A stretch of DNA of 64,000 bases, taken from assembly GCA_021513695.1 (NCBI GenBank), contig CP084166.1, forward strand, positions 3,008,001-3,072,000. Reading direction: 5' to 3'. Position 1 is the first letter of the stretch, and every line of letters begins with the position of its first letter. Positions 16,036 to 64,000 of this stretch are shown in pieces. The notes below the pieces were generated by a model. The model ran no database searches and was not told the DNA's origin. It was given only the letters and a program-made list of their open reading frames with translations. A program made the position numbers and the translations under genes. The DNA comes from Candidatus Heimdallarchaeum aukensis. GTDB lineage: Archaea > Asgardarchaeota > Heimdallarchaeia > Heimdallarchaeales > Heimdallarchaeaceae.

Positions 16036-16926
16036 ATGACAGTAAAAATAATGACCGATAGTGCAGCAGATATTCCCGAATATCTCCTAAAGGAGTATGA
16101 TATCTCTACAGTCCCCACAGTAATCAGATTTGGTGATGATGTCTATTATGAAAACAAAGATTTGACTTTGGATCAATACTATGAACTATTTCATTCTCAT
16201 CCAGAACCACCTCAAACAGCTAATCCTACTTTAGCTGATGACTTTGAATTATACAAAAAACTAGGAGAAGAAGCTGATGAAGTGATAAATATTGTTATTT
16301 CTAGCGGTATTTCTGGTTCATTCAACACTTCTAATGCTGCTTTGAAAATGTATGAAAAGAGAGTAAAAGATGGTGCAAAAGTATATGTCTTTGATTCACA
16401 TTTTGCTACAATGGGTATAGGTGTCCAAGCTTTAAAGGCTTCAGAGATGGCTAAAGAAGGACATAATGCAGCTGAAATATTGGCAATGTTAGAAGAATAC
16501 AGAGACAAATTAGCTGTTGCTTTCACAGTAGATAATTTAAAGTATCTCCATAGAGGAGGAAGATTGTCAAAATCTAAATTTTGGATAGCCAAACTAGCTG
16601 ACTTACATCCTGTGATTACTTTTATTGATGGAAAAATGGAAGTTGAAAAGACTTCTAGAGGTTATGATAATGCAATGGAAAAAGCTTTTGATCTATCTTG
16701 GGAAAAAACGAATAAAGCTAAGAAATTCAATGCCTATATCTGTTATGGAGAAAATAAAGAACACGCTCTATACATGAGAGATTATATCCAAGATAAAGTA
16801 GATGCAGAATTTAATATCGAGATATATCAAGTAGGAGCAACAATAATTACCCATACAGGTCCAGAAGTAAGTGGAATACTGCTTGATCCTTATAATGAAA
16901 AACTCTATAAAGCATCAGAAAAATAG
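16036..16926 (+). CDS. DegV family protein (paralog 3)
   Basis: MTVKIMTDSAADIP...VISSGISGSF... Confidence 0.85.
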   Translation: MTVKIMTDSAADIPEYLLKEYDISTVPTVIRFGDDVYYENKDLTLDQYYELFHSHPEPPQTANPTLADDFELYKKLGEEADEVINIVISSGISGSFNTSNAALKMYEKRVKDGAKVYVFDSHFATMGIGVQALKASEMAKEGHNAAEILAMLEEYRDKLAVAFTVDNLKYLHRGGRLSKSKFWIAKLADLHPVITFIDGKMEVEKTSRGYDNAMEKAFDLSWEKTNKAKKFNAYICYGENKEHALYMRDYIQDKVDAEFNIEIYQVGATIITHTGPEVSGILLDPYNEKLYKASEK

Positions 16927-57220: not shown

Positions 57221-58183
57221 TTAAATTTCTGTTATAAAATAGTTCTTTAAATCATTTACTGATTTGCATGCAATTAGTTCTCTTCTTATTTCTCTTCCTC
57301 CTGGCTCATTTTTGGTTAAATCTAAAGCAAATCTTTTTATTAGTTCTAAGTCGGTTGTTATTTCGTCGCAATCTTTGTACATCCTAATTGTATATTCTAT
57401 AAATTTATCTAACAATTCTACTTTTTCTTCCCAAGAAGCATTTTCTTTTCCCATAAAAATATAAGGTCTTCCTTTGGCCCATCTCCCTATTGCTACAGCA
57501 TAAGCTCCTCTTTTCATATACTCTTCTATGTCTTCAAAAGAGAAAACATCACCATTTGCAATTATTGGCAAATCTGTTTTGTTGGATATTTCATTTATAA
57601 CTTCTAGGTGTGCAGGAGTAGCAAAAGTTTCTGTTGCATATCTAGTATGAATAATAATCCAAGGATTACTGTATTCTTCAGCTATTTTGACTATTTCAGG
57701 TAAAACATTTCTATTCCATCCTATTCTAACTTTGAGAGTTATAGGTAAATTAGTTCCTTTTGAAAGACTGTTTACTAATTTTTCTACCAATTCAGGATGT
57801 CTTAGGAGTGCAGCTCCCATGTTTTGTTGACTAATTTTCTTTTTAGAACAGCCTAAATTAATGTTGATGAATTTGAATTTAGTTTTATCTTCGATTTCTG
57901 AACCAACTTCTTCAAATTCTTTTGGCTCATTACCAAAAATTTGTATTCCTACATTTTCTTCTTTTGAATCTGTATAAATCAATCTATATGTATTAAGGTT
58001 AAATTTCTTGCTGAAATGTGCAAGAAAAGACTTTATACTTACCATTTCTGTAATTGTTACACTTGCACCATATTCAGTAGCTAATACTCTGAAAGGATAT
58101 CGTGTATACTTAAAAAGAGGAGAAAGAATCAATGATCCTTTTTCAATCATTGACCAAACCATTCCTTTTTTATTTTCCGCCAC
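57221..58183 (-). CDS. tRNA-dihydrouridine synthase (Dus family)
   Basis: LSPLFKYTRYPFRVL...TEMV N-terminal motif; catalytic INLGCS; FMN-binding TIM barrel. Confidence 0.75.
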   Translation of the reverse strand: MAENKKGMVWSMIEKGSLILSPLFKYTRYPFRVLATEYGASVTITEMVSIKSFLAHFSKKFNLNTYRLIYTDSKEENVGIQIFGNEPKEFEEVGSEIEDKTKFKFININLGCSKKKISQQNMGAALLRHPELVEKLVNSLSKGTNLPITLKVRIGWNRNVLPEIVKIAEEYSNPWIIIHTRYATETFATPAHLEVINEISNKTDLPIIANGDVFSFEDIEEYMKRGAYAVAIGRWAKGRPYIFMGKENASWEEKVELLDKFIEYTIRMYKDCDEITTDLELIKRFALDLTKNEPGGREIRRELIACKSVNDLKNYFITEI

Positions 58184-59534
58184 TAACTTTGAGATTTTCG
58201 ATTAACATCCAAGGAGCTATTTGTCCTTTTCTGTTCTCTATTTCTTTTGAGAAATAAGTTATACTGTTCAGCAACTCAAAGATATTTCCGCCAATTACTG
58301 CATTTTTTACAGGGTGGACAATTTCTCCATCTTTCACATAAAATCCTTGATTTATTTGAGAAGAAATTGTTGGGCTATCTCCACTTGGATGAATACTTGA
58401 GCCTAGTAGGAAAATTCCCTCTTTCAACTCTTCGAGGAGAGAATCTTTACTTATCTCTCCTTCTTTTATTTGAAGGGCGTAAACTGAGGGAACAGGTCTT
58501 GAAGAAAATGTTCCTCTTGATGCATGACCTGTATTTTCTAATCCTACGAGTGGAGCGGTGTAAGAGTCTGTAACATATGTTTGAAGTATTCCATCTTTTA
58601 CTAGAACTGTTTTTTCTTGAGGAACTACTCCTTCGTCATCGAATCTAGTAGAGTTTGTTCCTCCTGGATAGAAGGGGTCATCGATAATAGTCAATTTTTC
58701 AGTGGCAATTTTGTCTCCTATTTTGTCTATGAAGAATGAGGTTTTATTAATAACATTGAAAGCATTTACTCCTTGAGCAATAATAGAACCTAACGTTCCG
58801 TAAGTGCTTTCAGGGTCTAAAAGTATGGGTAAGCTTTTTGTTTCTATTTTCTTTGCACCTAACATCTTTTTTGCTCTAATGCCTGCTTCTTTACCAATTT
58901 TTAGATAATCAAATTGCTTGAGAGTATTAGAGCTGTCATAATAATAAGCTACTCCTAAGTCATCTTCTTTCTCAATTTTTACTGAAAGATAACCTGAGAT
59001 GGATGTAGCTTTGCACCATCTTTCAATTCCTTGAGAGTTTAGAATCAATCTTTCTAATTTACCTAGTCCATAGTTTCCTCCAATAATAACATCTTTTTCT
59101 ATTTTTCCTTCTTCTACAGATTGAAGCATCAAATCTGTAAATTCTTCAACTGATAGGTTTTCTACTGCTTCATCGTATAAATCTTTAATATCTGGTATTG
59201 GTCTATCATCTGAAGGGAGAGATTGAAATTTAGGGTCAGGTTGACTGATTTTTGATAAAGAAAAAGCGTTTTTAACAGTTTTTTCGATGTTTTCTTTTGT
59301 GAATATAGTTGTTGAACTCATACCTACTGCTTTGTTCTTAAAAATCCTAACACCTATTCCAGAACCAGAAGTTTCAGAAAATCGAGAAATGGCTGATTTC
59401 TCTAGTTGTACTGTTCTACTAAATCCCTTTACTGCATATATTTCAATCTCTTCTGCTCCTAAACTAAGTCCATAATCGAGAGCATGTTTTGCTAGATCAA
59501 AAAATTCGTTATTCATCTTACTTTCCTCCAACAA
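58170..59534 (-). CDS. pmbA: TldE/PmbA-family protein, partner of TldD
   Basis: TldD/PmbA fold without an HExxxH motif. Adjacent to and overlapping tldD. Confidence 0.8.
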   Translation of the reverse strand: MLEESKMNNEFFDLAKHALDYGLSLGAEEIEIYAVKGFSRTVQLEKSAISRFSETSGSGIGVRIFKNKAVGMSSTTIFTKENIEKTVKNAFSLSKISQPDPKFQSLPSDDRPIPDIKDLYDEAVENLSVEEFTDLMLQSVEEGKIEKDVIIGGNYGLGKLERLILNSQGIERWCKATSISGYLSVKIEKEDDLGVAYYYDSSNTLKQFDYLKIGKEAGIRAKKMLGAKKIETKSLPILLDPESTYGTLGSIIAQGVNAFNVINKTSFFIDKIGDKIATEKLTIIDDPFYPGGTNSTRFDDEGVVPQEKTVLVKDGILQTYVTDSYTAPLVGLENTGHASRGTFSSRPVPSVYALQIKEGEISKDSLLEELKEGIFLLGSSIHPSGDSPTISSQINQGFYVKDGEIVHPVKNAVIGGNIFELLNSITYFSKEIENRKGQIAPWMLIENLKVSGGK

Positions 59535-61029
59535 CTAAATTAGAGACACCAATATTTGGTCCTCCTCCTGTAACAGGAACCCATTGTCCACCTTTTCCAC
59601 AAGTTCCAAGAAAAGCAGGTTTCCATTCTTTACTTATTCCATACGCATTATTCAAAACTTCTAAAGTCATTCCTGACATACCTACATTGCCAAAAAGTTC
59701 TCCTATCTCTCCATTTTCTATAATGTATCCATATTGACAAGTAAAGTAAAATTGTCCTTTAGTTGGATGAACATATCCACCATAAGAGTTCTTGAGGTAT
59801 ACTCCTTCTTTAGTCATTTCAGCTATTTCTTCTAAAGAAAGATCTCCAGAATCAACATAGGTATTTGCCATTCTCGGAATTGGTATAGAGTTGAAATCTT
59901 GAGCTCTTCCTGCTCCATTGGGTTTCATCTCCATCATTGTAGCAGTTTCTAATGTTTGGAAATATTCCTTCAAAATCCCTTTTTCTACAATTGTCCTTTT
60001 TTCAGATTTTGTTCCTTCTGAATCAAATACAAATGATCCTCTTAACCCTGGAATTGTAGGGTCATCATAAACACTTATTCCCTCAACACCTATTCTTTCG
60101 CCTATTTTACCTTCTAAAACAGAATTTTTGGCAAACACACCATCAGCTTCTGCTGCATGACCAAAAGCTTCGTGAATGAATACTCCTACTAGTGATTCAT
60201 CCATAATGACATTCATTTTACCACTTGGGGGGCTACGGGCGTCAAGCAATTTTTCTGCTTGTTCTGCACTTTTTCTCCCTTCTTCTTCGGGGTCCCAAGT
60301 CTCAAGTAGTTCCCATCCTCCTGTTCCTCCTATACTATCAAAAACACTTTGCATCTTTTCTCCTCTACGTGCTACAACGTCTTTCATTAGCCTTATAACA
60401 TGATACTCGTTTTCAACGTTGGTTCCTTTGTTATTAACAATATATTCTACCTTGTGCATCTCTTGATAGGTTGAAGAAGCTTGAGCTATGTTATCTGAGA
60501 ACTCTCTAGCCGATTTTTCTATAATCTTTATTTTTTCTAATTTCATCTCTTTATCAAGTTCTCGAGGGTCGATCTTAATTTCTGTTGCTCCTTTTCCCTC
60601 AAAAACCCATTCATCTGAAATTCTTCTTTCTTCCTTTGCATATTTAGAAGCTATCTTAGCCATACTAATGGCTTTTTTAACACTTTTCAGAATATCTTCA
60701 GTCTCTAATGATACAGTGGTAGTAAATCCCCAAGCGTTGTCAATTAGAGCTCGAACAGCAATTCCTCCAGAAGTACGATTTGAGATTGTATCGAATCTAC
60801 CATTTCGTACTGAAAAAGTCTCACTTTCACTTTGTGCATATCTGATATCTACAAAATCCTTACTTGAAAGTTCGACTTTATTTATGATTGCGTTTAATTT
60901 ATCTAACATAATCATAGTCCGAGAAAAAAAAAGAATTAAAAATGTATTCATATCTCTATTTTTAAATTGTTTAAATTCAATTGCGTCTAGAACGGTTTTT
61001 TTGAAAGAAAAACTTCTTAGACTATCCAA
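59518..61029 (-). CDS. tldD: TldD-family zinc metalloprotease
   Basis: HEAFGHAAEAD (HExxxH) motif and a Gly-rich C-terminus (GGGPNIGV). Confidence 0.85.
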   Translation of the reverse strand: MDSLRSFSFKKTVLDAIEFKQFKNRDMNTFLILFFSRTMIMLDKLNAIINKVELSSKDFVDIRYAQSESETFSVRNGRFDTISNRTSGGIAVRALIDNAWGFTTTVSLETEDILKSVKKAISMAKIASKYAKEERRISDEWVFEGKGATEIKIDPRELDKEMKLEKIKIIEKSAREFSDNIAQASSTYQEMHKVEYIVNNKGTNVENEYHVIRLMKDVVARRGEKMQSVFDSIGGTGGWELLETWDPEEEGRKSAEQAEKLLDARSPPSGKMNVIMDESLVGVFIHEAFGHAAEADGVFAKNSVLEGKIGERIGVEGISVYDDPTIPGLRGSFVFDSEGTKSEKRTIVEKGILKEYFQTLETATMMEMKPNGAGRAQDFNSIPIPRMANTYVDSGDLSLEEIAEMTKEGVYLKNSYGGYVHPTKGQFYFTCQYGYIIENGEIGELFGNVGMSGMTLEVLNNAYGISKEWKPAFLGTCGKGGQWVPVTGGGPNIGVSNLVVGGK

Positions 61030-61065: not shown

Positions 61066-61917
61066 ATGATTCATTTAGTAGCTTTTCAGAATCTTGACAG
61101 TGGTATAGGTTATCCTATTTACAGCGACGATACAATAAATGTCAGTTTAGAATTAATCTTTCCCATGATTAGTGCTTTGAACAACTTTGTAGAAGAATGT
61201 ACAAATGATGAACGAGGATTAGTCAATGCTGCTCTAGAAGATGTAAAGATTTTTTTGTATGCCCCTGAAGGCGAAGAGAACCCACTGAGATATGTTTTTT
61301 TTACAGATATATTCGATGATAATCTCTATTTAAGTTATAAGGCAGTAGAAATACACAAACATCTTTCTCCTTATATAAAATATGATTATTTTTCAATACC
61401 TGAGGAAAAAGCAAAGAAAATCACAGAAATTATCACCTTTACGCACGAATTCCCTAGAAAAGAATTATCCAATTATTTCTTGAGTGAGGTAGAGAATAAG
61501 ATAAAGAGTTATGAGAAAAATAAAGAAGTCTTCTTTGGAGATCTCTTTATTGGAGATCTGGACCAAGGGATTGTTTTGTCTTTCTTTGAGAATGATGAAA
61601 TTAAAGAGAAACCGAGTAAAGAGTTGTTTTCAGAATTAATTCAAACTTTCACCTTTCTTGAAAACGATTTATGGGCAAATTCTTCTATTAACGAAATAGA
61701 AAAAGATAAGCTTTCTAAATATGTAGAAAACCCTGATAAATTCAGAGAAGGCTGGTTTCTTTCTCAACTTGCTAGTTATAATAAGAGTGACTTTTGGTTA
61801 GTAGGTTATTTTGTCTACAGGACTGATATGGAACAAGAAGTAAAGGAGTTCTTATATTCACTATCAGAAAAAATTACTTCTATTATTTCTCCTTTTATAA
61901 CCAAAAGAAAATTCTAA
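61066..61917 (+). CDS. Hypothetical protein (283 aa)
   Basis: An ORF only; no family recognised. Confidence 0.35.
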   Translation: MIHLVAFQNLDSGIGYPIYSDDTINVSLELIFPMISALNNFVEECTNDERGLVNAALEDVKIFLYAPEGEENPLRYVFFTDIFDDNLYLSYKAVEIHKHLSPYIKYDYFSIPEEKAKKITEIITFTHEFPRKELSNYFLSEVENKIKSYEKNKEVFFGDLFIGDLDQGIVLSFFENDEIKEKPSKELFSELIQTFTFLENDLWANSSINEIEKDKLSKYVENPDKFREGWFLSQLASYNKSDFWLVGYFVYRTDMEQEVKEFLYSLSEKITSIISPFITKRKF

Positions 61918-62047: not shown

Positions 62048-64000
62048 ATGACTAAAGATAGAAAAGAGACCGACATTTCTAAATTCAATAATGATGATAC
62101 AAAAAATAAAAGTGGAAAGGAGCAAGTATTAGAAAAAGAAGAACCTCTTTTAGATATTTCATTCAATGATACTTCAGAAATATCTGTTCCTCCGAGACTA
62201 ATTGATCAAGTGATAGGTCAAGATGAAGCTGTTGAAATAATAAAAAAGGCTGCTTTGCAAAAAAGGCATGTCATGCTCATTGGGGATCCTGGAACAGGAA
62301 AGAGTATGTTAGGTCAAGCAATGGCAGAGCTTTTACCCAAAGAAGATCTTGTAGATATTCTTTGTTTACCTAATCCTAAATACCCAAATCAACCTAGAAT
62401 TGCTACTCTTCCAGCAGGGCATGGAACAAGAAAAGTTCAGATGGATACAGAGTTGGCTCGAAAGAAGGGTAATAAGAGATTTGTGGTTTCTTTATTCATT
62501 TTAATTGCTATAATTGGTTACGCTATTATTGCTACATCCTCTAGACCTGATTTACAACCTCAAACTCTTTTAATGGCAATGTTTGTAGGGTTCTTCATAT
62601 TCTTCATGCTCAATCAATCCAGATCAAGACCAGAAGCACTAATACCAAAATTATTAGTTGATAATAGTAATAGCAAAAGAGCACCATTCAATGATGCAAC
62701 AGGAAGCCACGCAGGAGCCTTACTTGGCGATGTACGTCACGATCCGTTTCAAAGCTTTTTAAGCGGAAATATTAAGATTTTTGAAGGAAATGGTCTGACT
62801 GAAGTCAACATTAAGGAATATGCAGATAAGCTATTTGAAAAGTATAGCAACAGGATTGTAAAAGACAAATCCAACAATTATGAAGCCATTTTTCTAGAAA
62901 AACCTATTAGAGTGATTGGTGAAGAAAAAGGACAATTAATTTCTGCTGATGTTTTATCTGTTAATAGGTATGAATATAGTGATTATGCAGTAGAAATAGA
63001 GATAGAAAATGGCAAAAAAGTAGCTGTTACACCTGAACATCGGATATTCGTACAAAATGAGAACGGATATATGATCGAAAAACCTGCAATGAAATTAAAA
63101 AAAGGAGAAAGAATAGTGTCTATTGATAATGAGATTATTATTGATGGAGAAGATATTGCATCTACATTTGGCGAAAATGATCTAAAACAGTATCTTCTCT
63201 ATAAAAGATTTTTAGAAGTTAGAAAACTTCATCCTACGTGGGGATATAAGCGAATTTCCAAGTTTTTAGGAGAAAAAAGCAGTAAAACAAGATGGTGGTA
63301 TGAAGAAAAGCATATACCTAAAGCTCAAAGAACTATAAATTGGCTTGAAAATAAAGGATTACTTCCATTAAAAATTAGTAATTCTAAATTACTTTTGATT
63401 GCCAAAGTTTTGGGTGCTTTATTTGGTGATGGAGGAATATTTGAAAACTTAAATGGCATATTTTTATCAAGTTCAGAATTAGAATCTGTCAAGGAATTTC
63501 AATCCGACATTGAGAAAATTTTTGATTTAGATGAAAATGAGTTTGGAAGGATTATTGAAGGTGGTGAAAAAGGTCATTCTTGGTGCTACCAAAACACTAA
63601 CCGAGCCATAGTTAGATTTTTTTTGGCACTTGGTGCTCCAAAGGGTAAAAAAACTGAACAACCTTTGTATGTTCCAGCTTGGATTTATACTGATGATGCA
63701 GTTGAAGAAGAGTTCTTTAGTTCATTTTTAGGAAGTGAGATAGGAGTACCCAAGGTACACATTTCTGGTATAAGGCTACAAACATTTGATCTAGCAATCA
63801 CTGGAAAAAAAGAACTGTCTAAGAACAGACTAGAATTTTTGAATCAAGTTATACAATTCTTGGAAAAAAGGGGCGTAAAATGCAATAATGTACGAGTCTA
63901 CGATACTCCCAACAAGAGGTATTACAAATACAGATTATTCATATCTACACAATTTTCAAATGTGTATCAGTTTTCTAAAGAAATTAAATTAAATTACTGT
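62048..64000 (+). CDS. lon: Archaeal membrane-bound Lon protease (LonB), 5' partial, interrupted by an intein; runs off the window end
   Basis: AAA+ Walker A LIGDPGTGKSMLGQA, a TM insertion (FVVSLFILIAIIGYAIIATS), and the conserved LGDVRHDPFQ segment after which the intein begins. There is no stop codon before 64000. Confidence 0.85.
   Translation, partial: MTKDRKETDISKFNNDDTKNKSGKEQVLEKEEPLLDISFNDTSEISVPPRLIDQVIGQDEAVEIIKKAALQKRHVMLIGDPGTGKSMLGQAMAELLPKEDLVDILCLPNPKYPNQPRIATLPAGHGTRKVQMDTELARKKGNKRFVVSLFILIAIIGYAIIATSSRPDLQPQTLLMAMFVGFFIFFMLNQSRSRPEALIPKLLVDNSNSKRAPFNDATGSHAGALLGDVRHDPFQSFLSGNIKIFEGNGLTEVNIKEYADKLFEKYSNRIVKDKSNNYEAIFLEKPIRVIGEEKGQLISADVLSVNRYEYSDYAVEIEIENGKKVAVTPEHRIFVQNENGYMIEKPAMKLKKGERIVSIDNEIIIDGEDIASTFGENDLKQYLLYKRFLEVRKLHPTWGYKRISKFLGEKSSKTRWWYEEKHIPKAQRTINWLENKGLLPLKISNSKLLLIAKVLGALFGDGGIFENLNGIFLSSSELESVKEFQSDIEKIFDLDENEFGRIIEGGEKGHSWCYQNTNRAIVRFFLALGAPKGKKTEQPLYVPAWIYTDDAVEEEFFSSFLGSEIGVPKVHISGIRLQTFDLAITGKKELSKNRLEFLNQVIQFLEKRGVKCNNVRVYDTPNKRYYKYRLFISTQFSNVYQFSKEIKLNYC
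62753..64000 (+). other. Intein (Hint domain with LAGLIDADG homing endonuclease) inserted in lonB after the DPFQ motif; its C-terminal end is outside the window
   Basis: Starts with Ser (SFLSGNIKIF, block A-like). Block B is VAVTPEHRIFV. LAGLIDADG-type block LLIAKVLGALFGDGGIFEN. Confidence 0.7.

Follow-up and report, generated by a model that had tools for sequence, protein, structure and literature searches.

The subject of this work is the 3′ end of a 64,000-nucleotide stretch of the Candidatus (Ca.) Heimdallarchaeum aukensis genome (contig CP084166.1, positions 3,008,001 to 3,072,000; hereafter the window), where the gene of the archaeal protease LonB is interrupted by an intein. Our sequence comparisons indicate that lonB is a split gene in this lineage, broken inside a naturally split intein whose homing endonuclease has stayed on the N-terminal fragment. 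The products of the two genes would probably dock through their intein halves and trans-splice to LonB, and the excised complex would promote homing of the intein. The gene architecture, the continuity of the extein, the conservation of the arrangement and a signature of horizontal replacement are documented here, and from these we infer splicing and DNA cleavage.

The first of the two genes (gene 1) starts with an ATG at position 62048 of the forward strand, and its frame is open for 651 codons, up to the last base of the window (64000). It had been left unlisted in the open reading frame (ORF) track, which omitted frames reaching the window edge. Residues 37-243 of the product match positions 2-196 of the NCBIfam LonB model TIGR00764 (expect value, E, 1.6e-68); the window part alone scores 231.8 bits, under the cut-off of 516.6, because it covers only one third of the protein. 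An alignment with the Thermococcus onnurineus LonB (TonLonB, 4zpx; E 7.2e-60) reaches ...GDVRHDPFQS, and the intein begins directly after LGDVRHDPFQ (residues 226-235), with a Ser. A first-pass annotation, made from the letters alone, had already recognized LonB, its AAA+ module and membrane anchor, and the Ser-initiated intein at this point, all of which are borne out by the sequence. Its placement of the insertion in the AAA+ sensor region was mistaken: the intein is inserted between the membrane hairpin and Walker B, upstream of the latter, and both Walker B (GVLYIDEI) and sensor 1 (LVAAGN) are found in the downstream extein, encoded by a second gene. A hairpin inside the AAA+ module is typical of LonB. 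The features of gene 1 within the window are as follows, all on the forward strand (+).

62048..62752 (+): N-extein, LonB residues 1-235, ending in ...LGDVRHDPFQ; delimited by the TIGR00764 and 4zpx matches and by a break in homology
62282..62305 (+): Walker A motif or P-loop, GDPGTGKS, residues 79-86; from sequence and conservation
62480..62611 (+): membrane hairpin in the AAA+ module, hydrophobic helices at residues 145-164 and 174-188; from sequence, the AlphaFold2 model and the TonLonB alignment
62753..64000 (+): N-intein fragment (IntN) with fused endonuclease, residues 1-416 of a 470-residue IntN, cut by the window end; from the Pfam Intein_splicing match and near-identical contigs
62753..62782 (+): intein block A, SFLSGNIKIF, with Ser236 (62753) as N-terminal nucleophile; from sequence
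63029..63040 (+): intein block B, TPEH, residues 328-331 (Thr B:7, His B:10); from sequence and conservation
63128..63391 (+): helical accessory region between the Hint lobe and the endonuclease, residues ~361-448, with a WGYKRI...RWW motif; from the AlphaFold2 model and conservation
63392..64000 (+): LAGLIDADG domain, truncated by the window end, with motif 1 LGALFGDGG at 63410-63436 (Asp461) and motif 2 FFSSFLGSEIG at 63713-63745 (Glu564); from Foldseek and conservation

The continuation of gene 1 was read from two near-identical contigs, L001 and L002, which align without gaps to the tail of the window (99.17% identity over 6299 nucleotides and 99.51% over 4729 nucleotides, respectively); both carry the gene of the homologous protein P0001, of 705 residues and from a Heimdallarchaeaceae metagenome-assembled genome (MAG), which differs from the window product at 3 of 651 residues. 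An exact match to the last 51 nucleotides of the window was sought among genome and metagenome contigs, and none was found. In both contigs gene 1 ends in a TAA located 54 codons past the window end, so that the gene does run off the window, as had been claimed, but barely, its stop being only 163-165 nucleotides beyond base 64000. The TAA is followed by CT and then by the ATG of gene 2, which lies in another frame and is preceded, 11-15 nucleotides upstream, by GGAGG, as is also the case at the Ca. Heimdallarchaeum endolithica locus (L010). Gene 2 consists of 460 codons and encodes a 39-residue C-intein (IntC), which holds blocks F and G and closes with Asn, then Ser+1 and the remainder of LonB, i.e., a C-extein of 421 residues holding Walker B, sensor 1, the Arg finger and the Lon protease domain. 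Its Pfam matches are LonB_AAA-LID (weak) and Lon_C, and it covers positions 194-593 of TIGR00764 with 631.9 bits. When the N-extein of the window and the C-extein of L001 were ligated in silico (235 + 421 = 656 residues), the product matched TIGR00764 in one unbroken stretch, from position 2 to 593 of 608, with 883.5 bits. Elsewhere in the window, tblastn found no second copy of the C-terminal half of LonB. The C-terminal splice junction that had been expected downstream, with blocks F and G, Asn, Ser+1 and the resumption of the extein, is thus present in L001 and L002, in a gene of its own and not in one continuous ORF; the intein is therefore real, but naturally split, since IntN and IntC occupy separate ORFs with a stop codon and a dedicated ATG between them.

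Regarding the N-terminal half of the intein, gene 1 scored over the curated cut-offs of Pfam Intein_splicing (44.1 bits against 35.8) and TIGR01445, intein_Nterm (31.1 bits against 24.5), and in a profile search of the Protein Data Bank (PDB) its Hint N-lobe matched the MJ0781 KlbA intein (3.8e-12). These matches confirm the Hint domain that had been proposed from block B (VAVTPEHRIFV, residues 325-335), and T328 and H331 of this block are invariant among 60 homologues, as are G79, P81, G82, G84, K85 and S86 of Walker A. Position 1 of the intein was Cys in 46, Thr in 33 and Ser in 32 of the 111 scorable sequences among 120 listed homologues; Thr was also observed at this position in P0286, a contiguous relative. 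In P0001, where IntN can be followed to its end, the Hint N-lobe (blocks A and B) is succeeded by the accessory helices, a LAGLIDADG endonuclease with both motifs complete and, last, a helical tail; the endonuclease adds about 345 residues to IntN.

The block that had been attributed to a homing endonuclease (LLIAKVLGALFGDGGI, residues 449-464) contains the first LAGLIDADG motif (LGALFGDGG, residues 455-463), and the attribution was substantiated at the level of structure. At the sequence level, Pfam LAGLIDADG_3 matched only one of 11 members of the intein family (E 0.037), and the PDB profile search matched only the Hint N-lobe, with no sequence match for the endonuclease region. An AlphaFold2 model was built on P0001 with 60 homologues; its predicted local distance difference test (pLDDT) values are above 90 over residues ~370-705, and helices at 126-162 and 167-193 coincide with the membrane hairpin, which aligns with the transmembrane region of TonLonB. 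With this model, Foldseek retrieved the inteins TliVMA (2.5e-11), PI-PfuI (4.9e-11) and PI-TkoII (9.7e-10), the monomeric LAGLIDADG enzymes I-DmoI (template modelling score 0.60-0.70) and I-Tsp061I, and, for the extein, TonLonB. The two-fold pseudo-symmetric LAGLIDADG fold of the insert is thereby confirmed in the predicted structure. The acidic residues closing both LAGLIDADG helices are conserved among 60 sequences, Asp461 being invariant and Glu564 present in at least 90%, and the endonuclease region displays the highest mean identity across gene 1 (60%, compared to 59% in the extein and 47% in the Hint N-lobe). Considering its fold, its conserved Asp461 and Glu564 and its degree of conservation, the endonuclease looks functional. 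The accessory region was modelled as helices 376-394, 400-407, 411-418 and 425-435 (pLDDT >90), with residues 398-400 (WGY) conserved in at least 90% of the 60 homologues and 415-417 (RWW) invariant, and it is a probable DNA-binding module.

The split layout is widespread. The 120 listed homologues are 507-761 residues long, share a common C-terminal tail (L.LTP.SLY..LN), and have Mg_chelatase and/or Intein_splicing as main Pfam matches, none of them including Lon_C. In addition, species-representative genomes were scanned with an alignment of the intein alone, yielding 80 loci that belong to Woesearchaeota, Nanoarchaeota, Iainarchaeum, Parvarchaeota, Micrarchaeota and the closed genome of Ca. 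Heimdallarchaeum endolithica PR6. The contiguous form was found in none of the 120 listed homologues and in none of the 80 scan loci. These loci and three other contigs provided 73 loci with a C gene, 55 of which show the two-piece layout of the window lineage, in DPANN archaea and in Ca. Heimdallarchaeum, the closed genome CP084167 included. A further 16-18 loci have three ORFs (e.g., L055, L066 and L073): an N-extein with an IntN of ~130 residues, a free-standing endonuclease ORF of 320-410 residues, and IntC with the C-extein. IntC is preceded by its own start codon in all 73 loci (ATG in 72, TTG in one), is 39 residues long in 66 of them, and starts 37-45 codons before the junction overall; all 73 loci retain the terminal Asn and Ser+1.

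The junction between the two genes varies. In 33 of the 55 two-piece loci the stop codon of the N gene and the start codon of the C gene share the sequence ATGA; in the others the spacing is between -11 and +325 nucleotides, and in the three-piece loci it exceeds 1 kb. The relative frame of the two halves is +2 in 43 loci, while +1 and 0 are found in 6 loci each, and all three stop codons occur. Such variation in frame, spacing and stop codon points to translation of each gene by itself, frequently with coupling, and speaks against read-through or frameshifting. Across loci, the arrangement is conserved and does not represent an error. Eight two-piece loci (L008, L016, L026, L049, L051, L058, L063 and L065) have a spacer of 223-325 nucleotides between the stop codon of the N gene and the ATG of the C gene, and several of these spacers share an A-rich aaaaaatatc.gaaaaaATG just ahead of the start codon; the long spacer may represent a promoter or leader that was inserted, or else a remnant. 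Many loci (e.g., L004, L006 and L009) are labelled "uncultured Methanosarcinales archaeon", and their LonB and intein sequences group with those of Woesearchaeota and Nanoarchaeota, so that the taxonomy given for these MAGs seems unreliable.

Unsplit relatives do exist, and LonB inteins in Euryarchaeota are on record (PMC4760082). When 1.84 billion representative proteins were searched with a profile, 1154 matches at E ≤ 1e-3 were obtained, contiguous LonB proteins among them. The LonB of Thermococcus nautili (WP_042693108.1, 1108 residues) contains a contiguous, homologous intein of 474 residues at the same site (...HDPFQ/CFSGNES..., a slash marking the splice junction here and below), and three metagenomic proteins (P0286, P0292 and P0298) are likewise contiguous LonB with a homologous intein at this site. 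The earlier description of the site as a known one in archaeal Lon was therefore right as to the site, its location in the sensor region aside. A profile spanning the junction (the tail of IntN, IntC and 15 extein residues) retrieved short fragments only, and since it missed the full-length N genes too, it constitutes a weak negative for further unsplit relatives. Intein-free lonB alleles were found among fragments from Heimdallarchaeaceae, Hodarchaeales, Woesearchaeota and Nanoarchaeota, in a search with the N-terminus of Thermococcales LonB that returned only short or partial proteins.

Other forms of interruption were observed in the same gene. A second LonB insertion site is located next to sensor 1 (...RTEAVP/C...FVLVAAG; P0302, P0303, P0309 and locus L083), where a split intein has its endonuclease likewise fused to IntN and a canonical block G (...VVHN/C). 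In L083 (CAYJWT010000022.1, 1452-7101), LonB is encoded as three polypeptides, namely, the N-extein with the IntN of the first intein (a) lacking an endonuclease; the IntC of this intein with a middle extein of ~73 residues and the IntN of the second (b) with endonuclease; and the IntC of the latter with the Lon protease domain. Assembly of this LonB would require two trans-splicing events. The N gene P0278, from a DPANN-type contig, harbours a further, contiguous intein ahead of the split one, at its Walker A loop (...HNFLANNIFVHN/SM...), which brings the number of intein sites in one lonB to as many as three; the N-gene frames of L015, L020 and L040 (934-1210 residues) are long enough for the same extra intein. 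Finally, P0132 (162 residues, on a 728-nucleotide ENA contig) joins the end of IntN in frame to a Met-led IntC with no endonuclease between them, and looks like a re-joined contiguous mini-intein; its extein frame degenerates soon after the junction, so that the contig may be a poor or chimeric assembly.

The signature of mobility was obtained from the comparison of L001 with the Ca. Heimdallarchaeum endolithica locus L010. Their upstream and downstream flanks share 90.1% and 88.6% identity, respectively. This homology breaks off at the final base of the N-extein and returns 50 nucleotides before the C-extein, and between these points only a 631-nucleotide stretch aligns, with 67% identity. 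In the window itself, DNA homology with L010 ends exactly at 62752. At the protein level, P0001 and P0002 have exteins that are 97% identical and inteins that are 46% identical, and in some other pairs of homologues the inteins are more alike than the exteins. Intein-free alleles in the same clades likewise fit a mobile element. Evidently, the whole cassette has been exchanged horizontally, internal stop and start included, and the sharp break in homology at the splice junction suggests that an intein, although split, can still move by homing in one piece. For site-specific DNA cleavage by the endonuclease, this break and the uncoupled divergence of exteins and inteins give indirect support only.

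With the integration of these findings, the following sequence of events is proposed. The two polypeptides would be translated separately, and often in a coupled manner, as the ATGA overlap in most relatives implies; they would associate via their intein halves and trans-splice into the 656-residue LonB; the excised complex of IntN-endonuclease and IntC would then cut intein-free lonB alleles, and homing would copy in the whole cassette with its internal stop and start.

Several observations weigh against this proposal. The stop codon, the C-intein and gene 2 lie outside the window and are known from L001 and L002. Charge complementarity between the halves is typical of split inteins; here IntC has an average net charge of +4.5 and IntN is roughly neutral, so that complementarity is not evident at the gross level. 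Confidence in the Hint N-lobe of the AlphaFold2 model is moderate (pLDDT 57-88). The positions that assist splicing are non-canonical, with Asn at F:4, a residue other than His at F:13, and a penultimate residue (G:6) that is Ser in L001 and Lys, Ser, Ala or Arg in other loci. In addition, Thr1, found in a third of the homologues, is an unusual nucleophile; one review (PMC4031507) lists only Cys or Ser for position 1.

These residues would also fit an association without splicing, in which the intein halves act as a tight non-covalent docking module for a two-chain LonB; assembly through protein interaction domains has been reported for a phage ribonucleotide reductase that a mobile element had fragmented (PMC3045599). 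The invariance of Ser+1 is uninformative in this regard, because the SGG motif is part of LonB itself. Nevertheless, we consider this explanation unlikely. The terminal Asn is retained in 73 of 73 loci, position 1 varies solely among three nucleophilic residues, and Thr and His of block B are invariant. The same non-canonical residues occur in contiguous inteins: T. nautili, a cultured organism, has Asn at F:4 and Lys at G:6, and P0286, P0292 and P0298 share with it Asn at F:4 and a penultimate residue other than His. Since the T. nautili intein must splice to yield LonB, these residues are compatible with splicing, and a study cited in PMC4031507 deals with splicing in the absence of the penultimate His. 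Moreover, the break falls inside the AAA+ core, with Walker A on one side and Walker B on the other, which would leave a domain of 470 residues hanging at the junction of a non-covalent enzyme.

Two further explanations retain a single precursor and are, in our view, very improbable. An ordinary cis-splicing intein, with one long lonB ORF running through blocks F and G into the C-extein, would agree with the lack of a stop codon inside the window and with the contiguous inteins at the same site in T. nautili, P0286, P0292 and P0298; it conflicts with the contigs 99.2-99.5% identical to the window, where the TAA is reached 54 codons on and the C-intein sits in another frame behind its own ATG, and with the absence of the contiguous form from the listed homologues and scan loci. 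Translational recoding (read-through, frameshift or bypass) followed by cis-splicing finds some agreement in L007 and L014, whose halves are in frame and separated by a single stop plus one codon. It has just as little to recommend it in view of the variable frame, the use of three stop codons, the range of spacings (over 1 kb in three-piece loci), the start codon that heads IntC in every locus, the GGAGG upstream of it in L001 and L010, and the junction of L001, where no slippery sequence was seen. Least probable of all is a decaying pseudogene or an assembly artefact, in which a nonsense mutation in a degenerating intein had inactivated lonB: gene 1 is labelled merely "ATP-binding protein" by NCBI and many database entries are fragments, but the break has the same position over 73 loci of DPANN and Heimdall archaea, a closed genome among them, both ORFs are intact with conserved catalytic motifs, and the ligated product scores as a LonB equivalog.

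Several known systems can be compared with the split lonB intein. Its closest known counterpart is the contiguous Thermococcales LonB intein represented by T. nautili, which has an identical site (HDPFQ / SGGLGTP), homologous Hint and LAGLIDADG domains (profile E 5.9e-49) and the same unusual residues in blocks F and G (...YN.TTE.GN...VKN/S). The difference is that the T. nautili intein is part of one ORF and splices in cis, whereas in the lineage of the window a stop codon followed by a fresh start separates the endonuclease from block F. The Lon intein of Pyrococcus abyssi has been studied experimentally, as cited in PMC4031507. Structurally, PI-PfuI (1DQ3), PI-TkoII (2CW7) and TliVMA (7QSU) are the best matches over Hint and LAGLIDADG together (2.5e-11 to 9.7e-10), although their sequence identity is 15-18%, all are contiguous, and their accessory helical regions differ.

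Classical split inteins, such as cyanobacterial DnaE, the Nanoarchaeum equitans DNA polymerase (Neq Pol) and the metagenomic gp41-1, are likewise formed by two polypeptides, with the break at the canonical site ~35-40 residues from the C-terminus of the intein. They have been described as a few mini-inteins without an endonuclease (PMC6801210, PMC8966425), and the halves of DnaE and Neq Pol are unlinked in the genome (PMC2677866); at the locus of the window, in contrast, IntN has an endonuclease and the two genes abut. A greater resemblance is seen to the fractured genes of Dassa et al. (2009, PMC2677866), in which a split intein interrupts the host gene, the halves remain adjacent in their original order, and a homing endonuclease is encoded between the extein halves. 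Their three-ORF layout is exactly matched by the 16-18 three-piece relatives of the window locus. The fractured genes have a free-standing GIY-YIG or Vsr-like endonuclease, hosts of DNA synthesis and repair, and an origin in marine metagenomes; a term search of PMC2677866 found no mention of LAGLIDADG and no LonB host. The window locus differs from them in its LAGLIDADG endonuclease, which is fused in frame to IntN, so that there are two ORFs rather than three and no free-standing endonuclease gene. Our literature search turned up neither a split LonB intein nor a natural split intein that carries an endonuclease, and as most subscription journals were outside its coverage, novelty is unproven. 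On balance, we are inclined to regard these loci as the first described natural split-intein family with an apparently active endonuclease held covalently in one fragment, which would make the split intein itself a mobile element.

The origin of split inteins has been addressed mainly by the gene-breaking model (Dassa et al., PMC2677866). If the proposed reading is correct, a single LonB site keeps all stages of break-up, i.e., contiguous, two-piece with the endonuclease half-fused, three-piece fractured, endonuclease-free, and doubly split into three polypeptides, and this natural series, spread over many archaeal species, would make the order and number of splits testable. It would also provide hundreds of natural split inteins for orthogonality tests, many of them with a Ser or Thr nucleophile. 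Split inteins with such nucleophiles are sought for protein engineering, cysteine-less ones being described as rare (PMC11923092), and the LonB family would offer many natural candidates. A further consequence concerns genome annotation: with gene 1 labelled "ATP-binding protein", LonB can appear truncated or absent in reconstructions of Asgard and DPANN archaea.

As to the genes surrounding lonB, the N gene is immediately preceded by an ORF of 283 residues (window 61066-61917, +), for which no Pfam match is on record and which is conserved in L001 and L002. Beyond it, on the strand opposite to lonB, are two adjoining ORFs of the PmbA/TldD family (454 and 503 residues; window 58170-61029, -), whose Pfam assignment was taken from near-identical genes in L001. 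In keeping with an Asgard (Heimdall) origin of the window, L001 carries, about 10 kb downstream of the window end, a gene (16229-16464) with a match to Pfam ARPC4, a subunit of the Arp2/3 complex.

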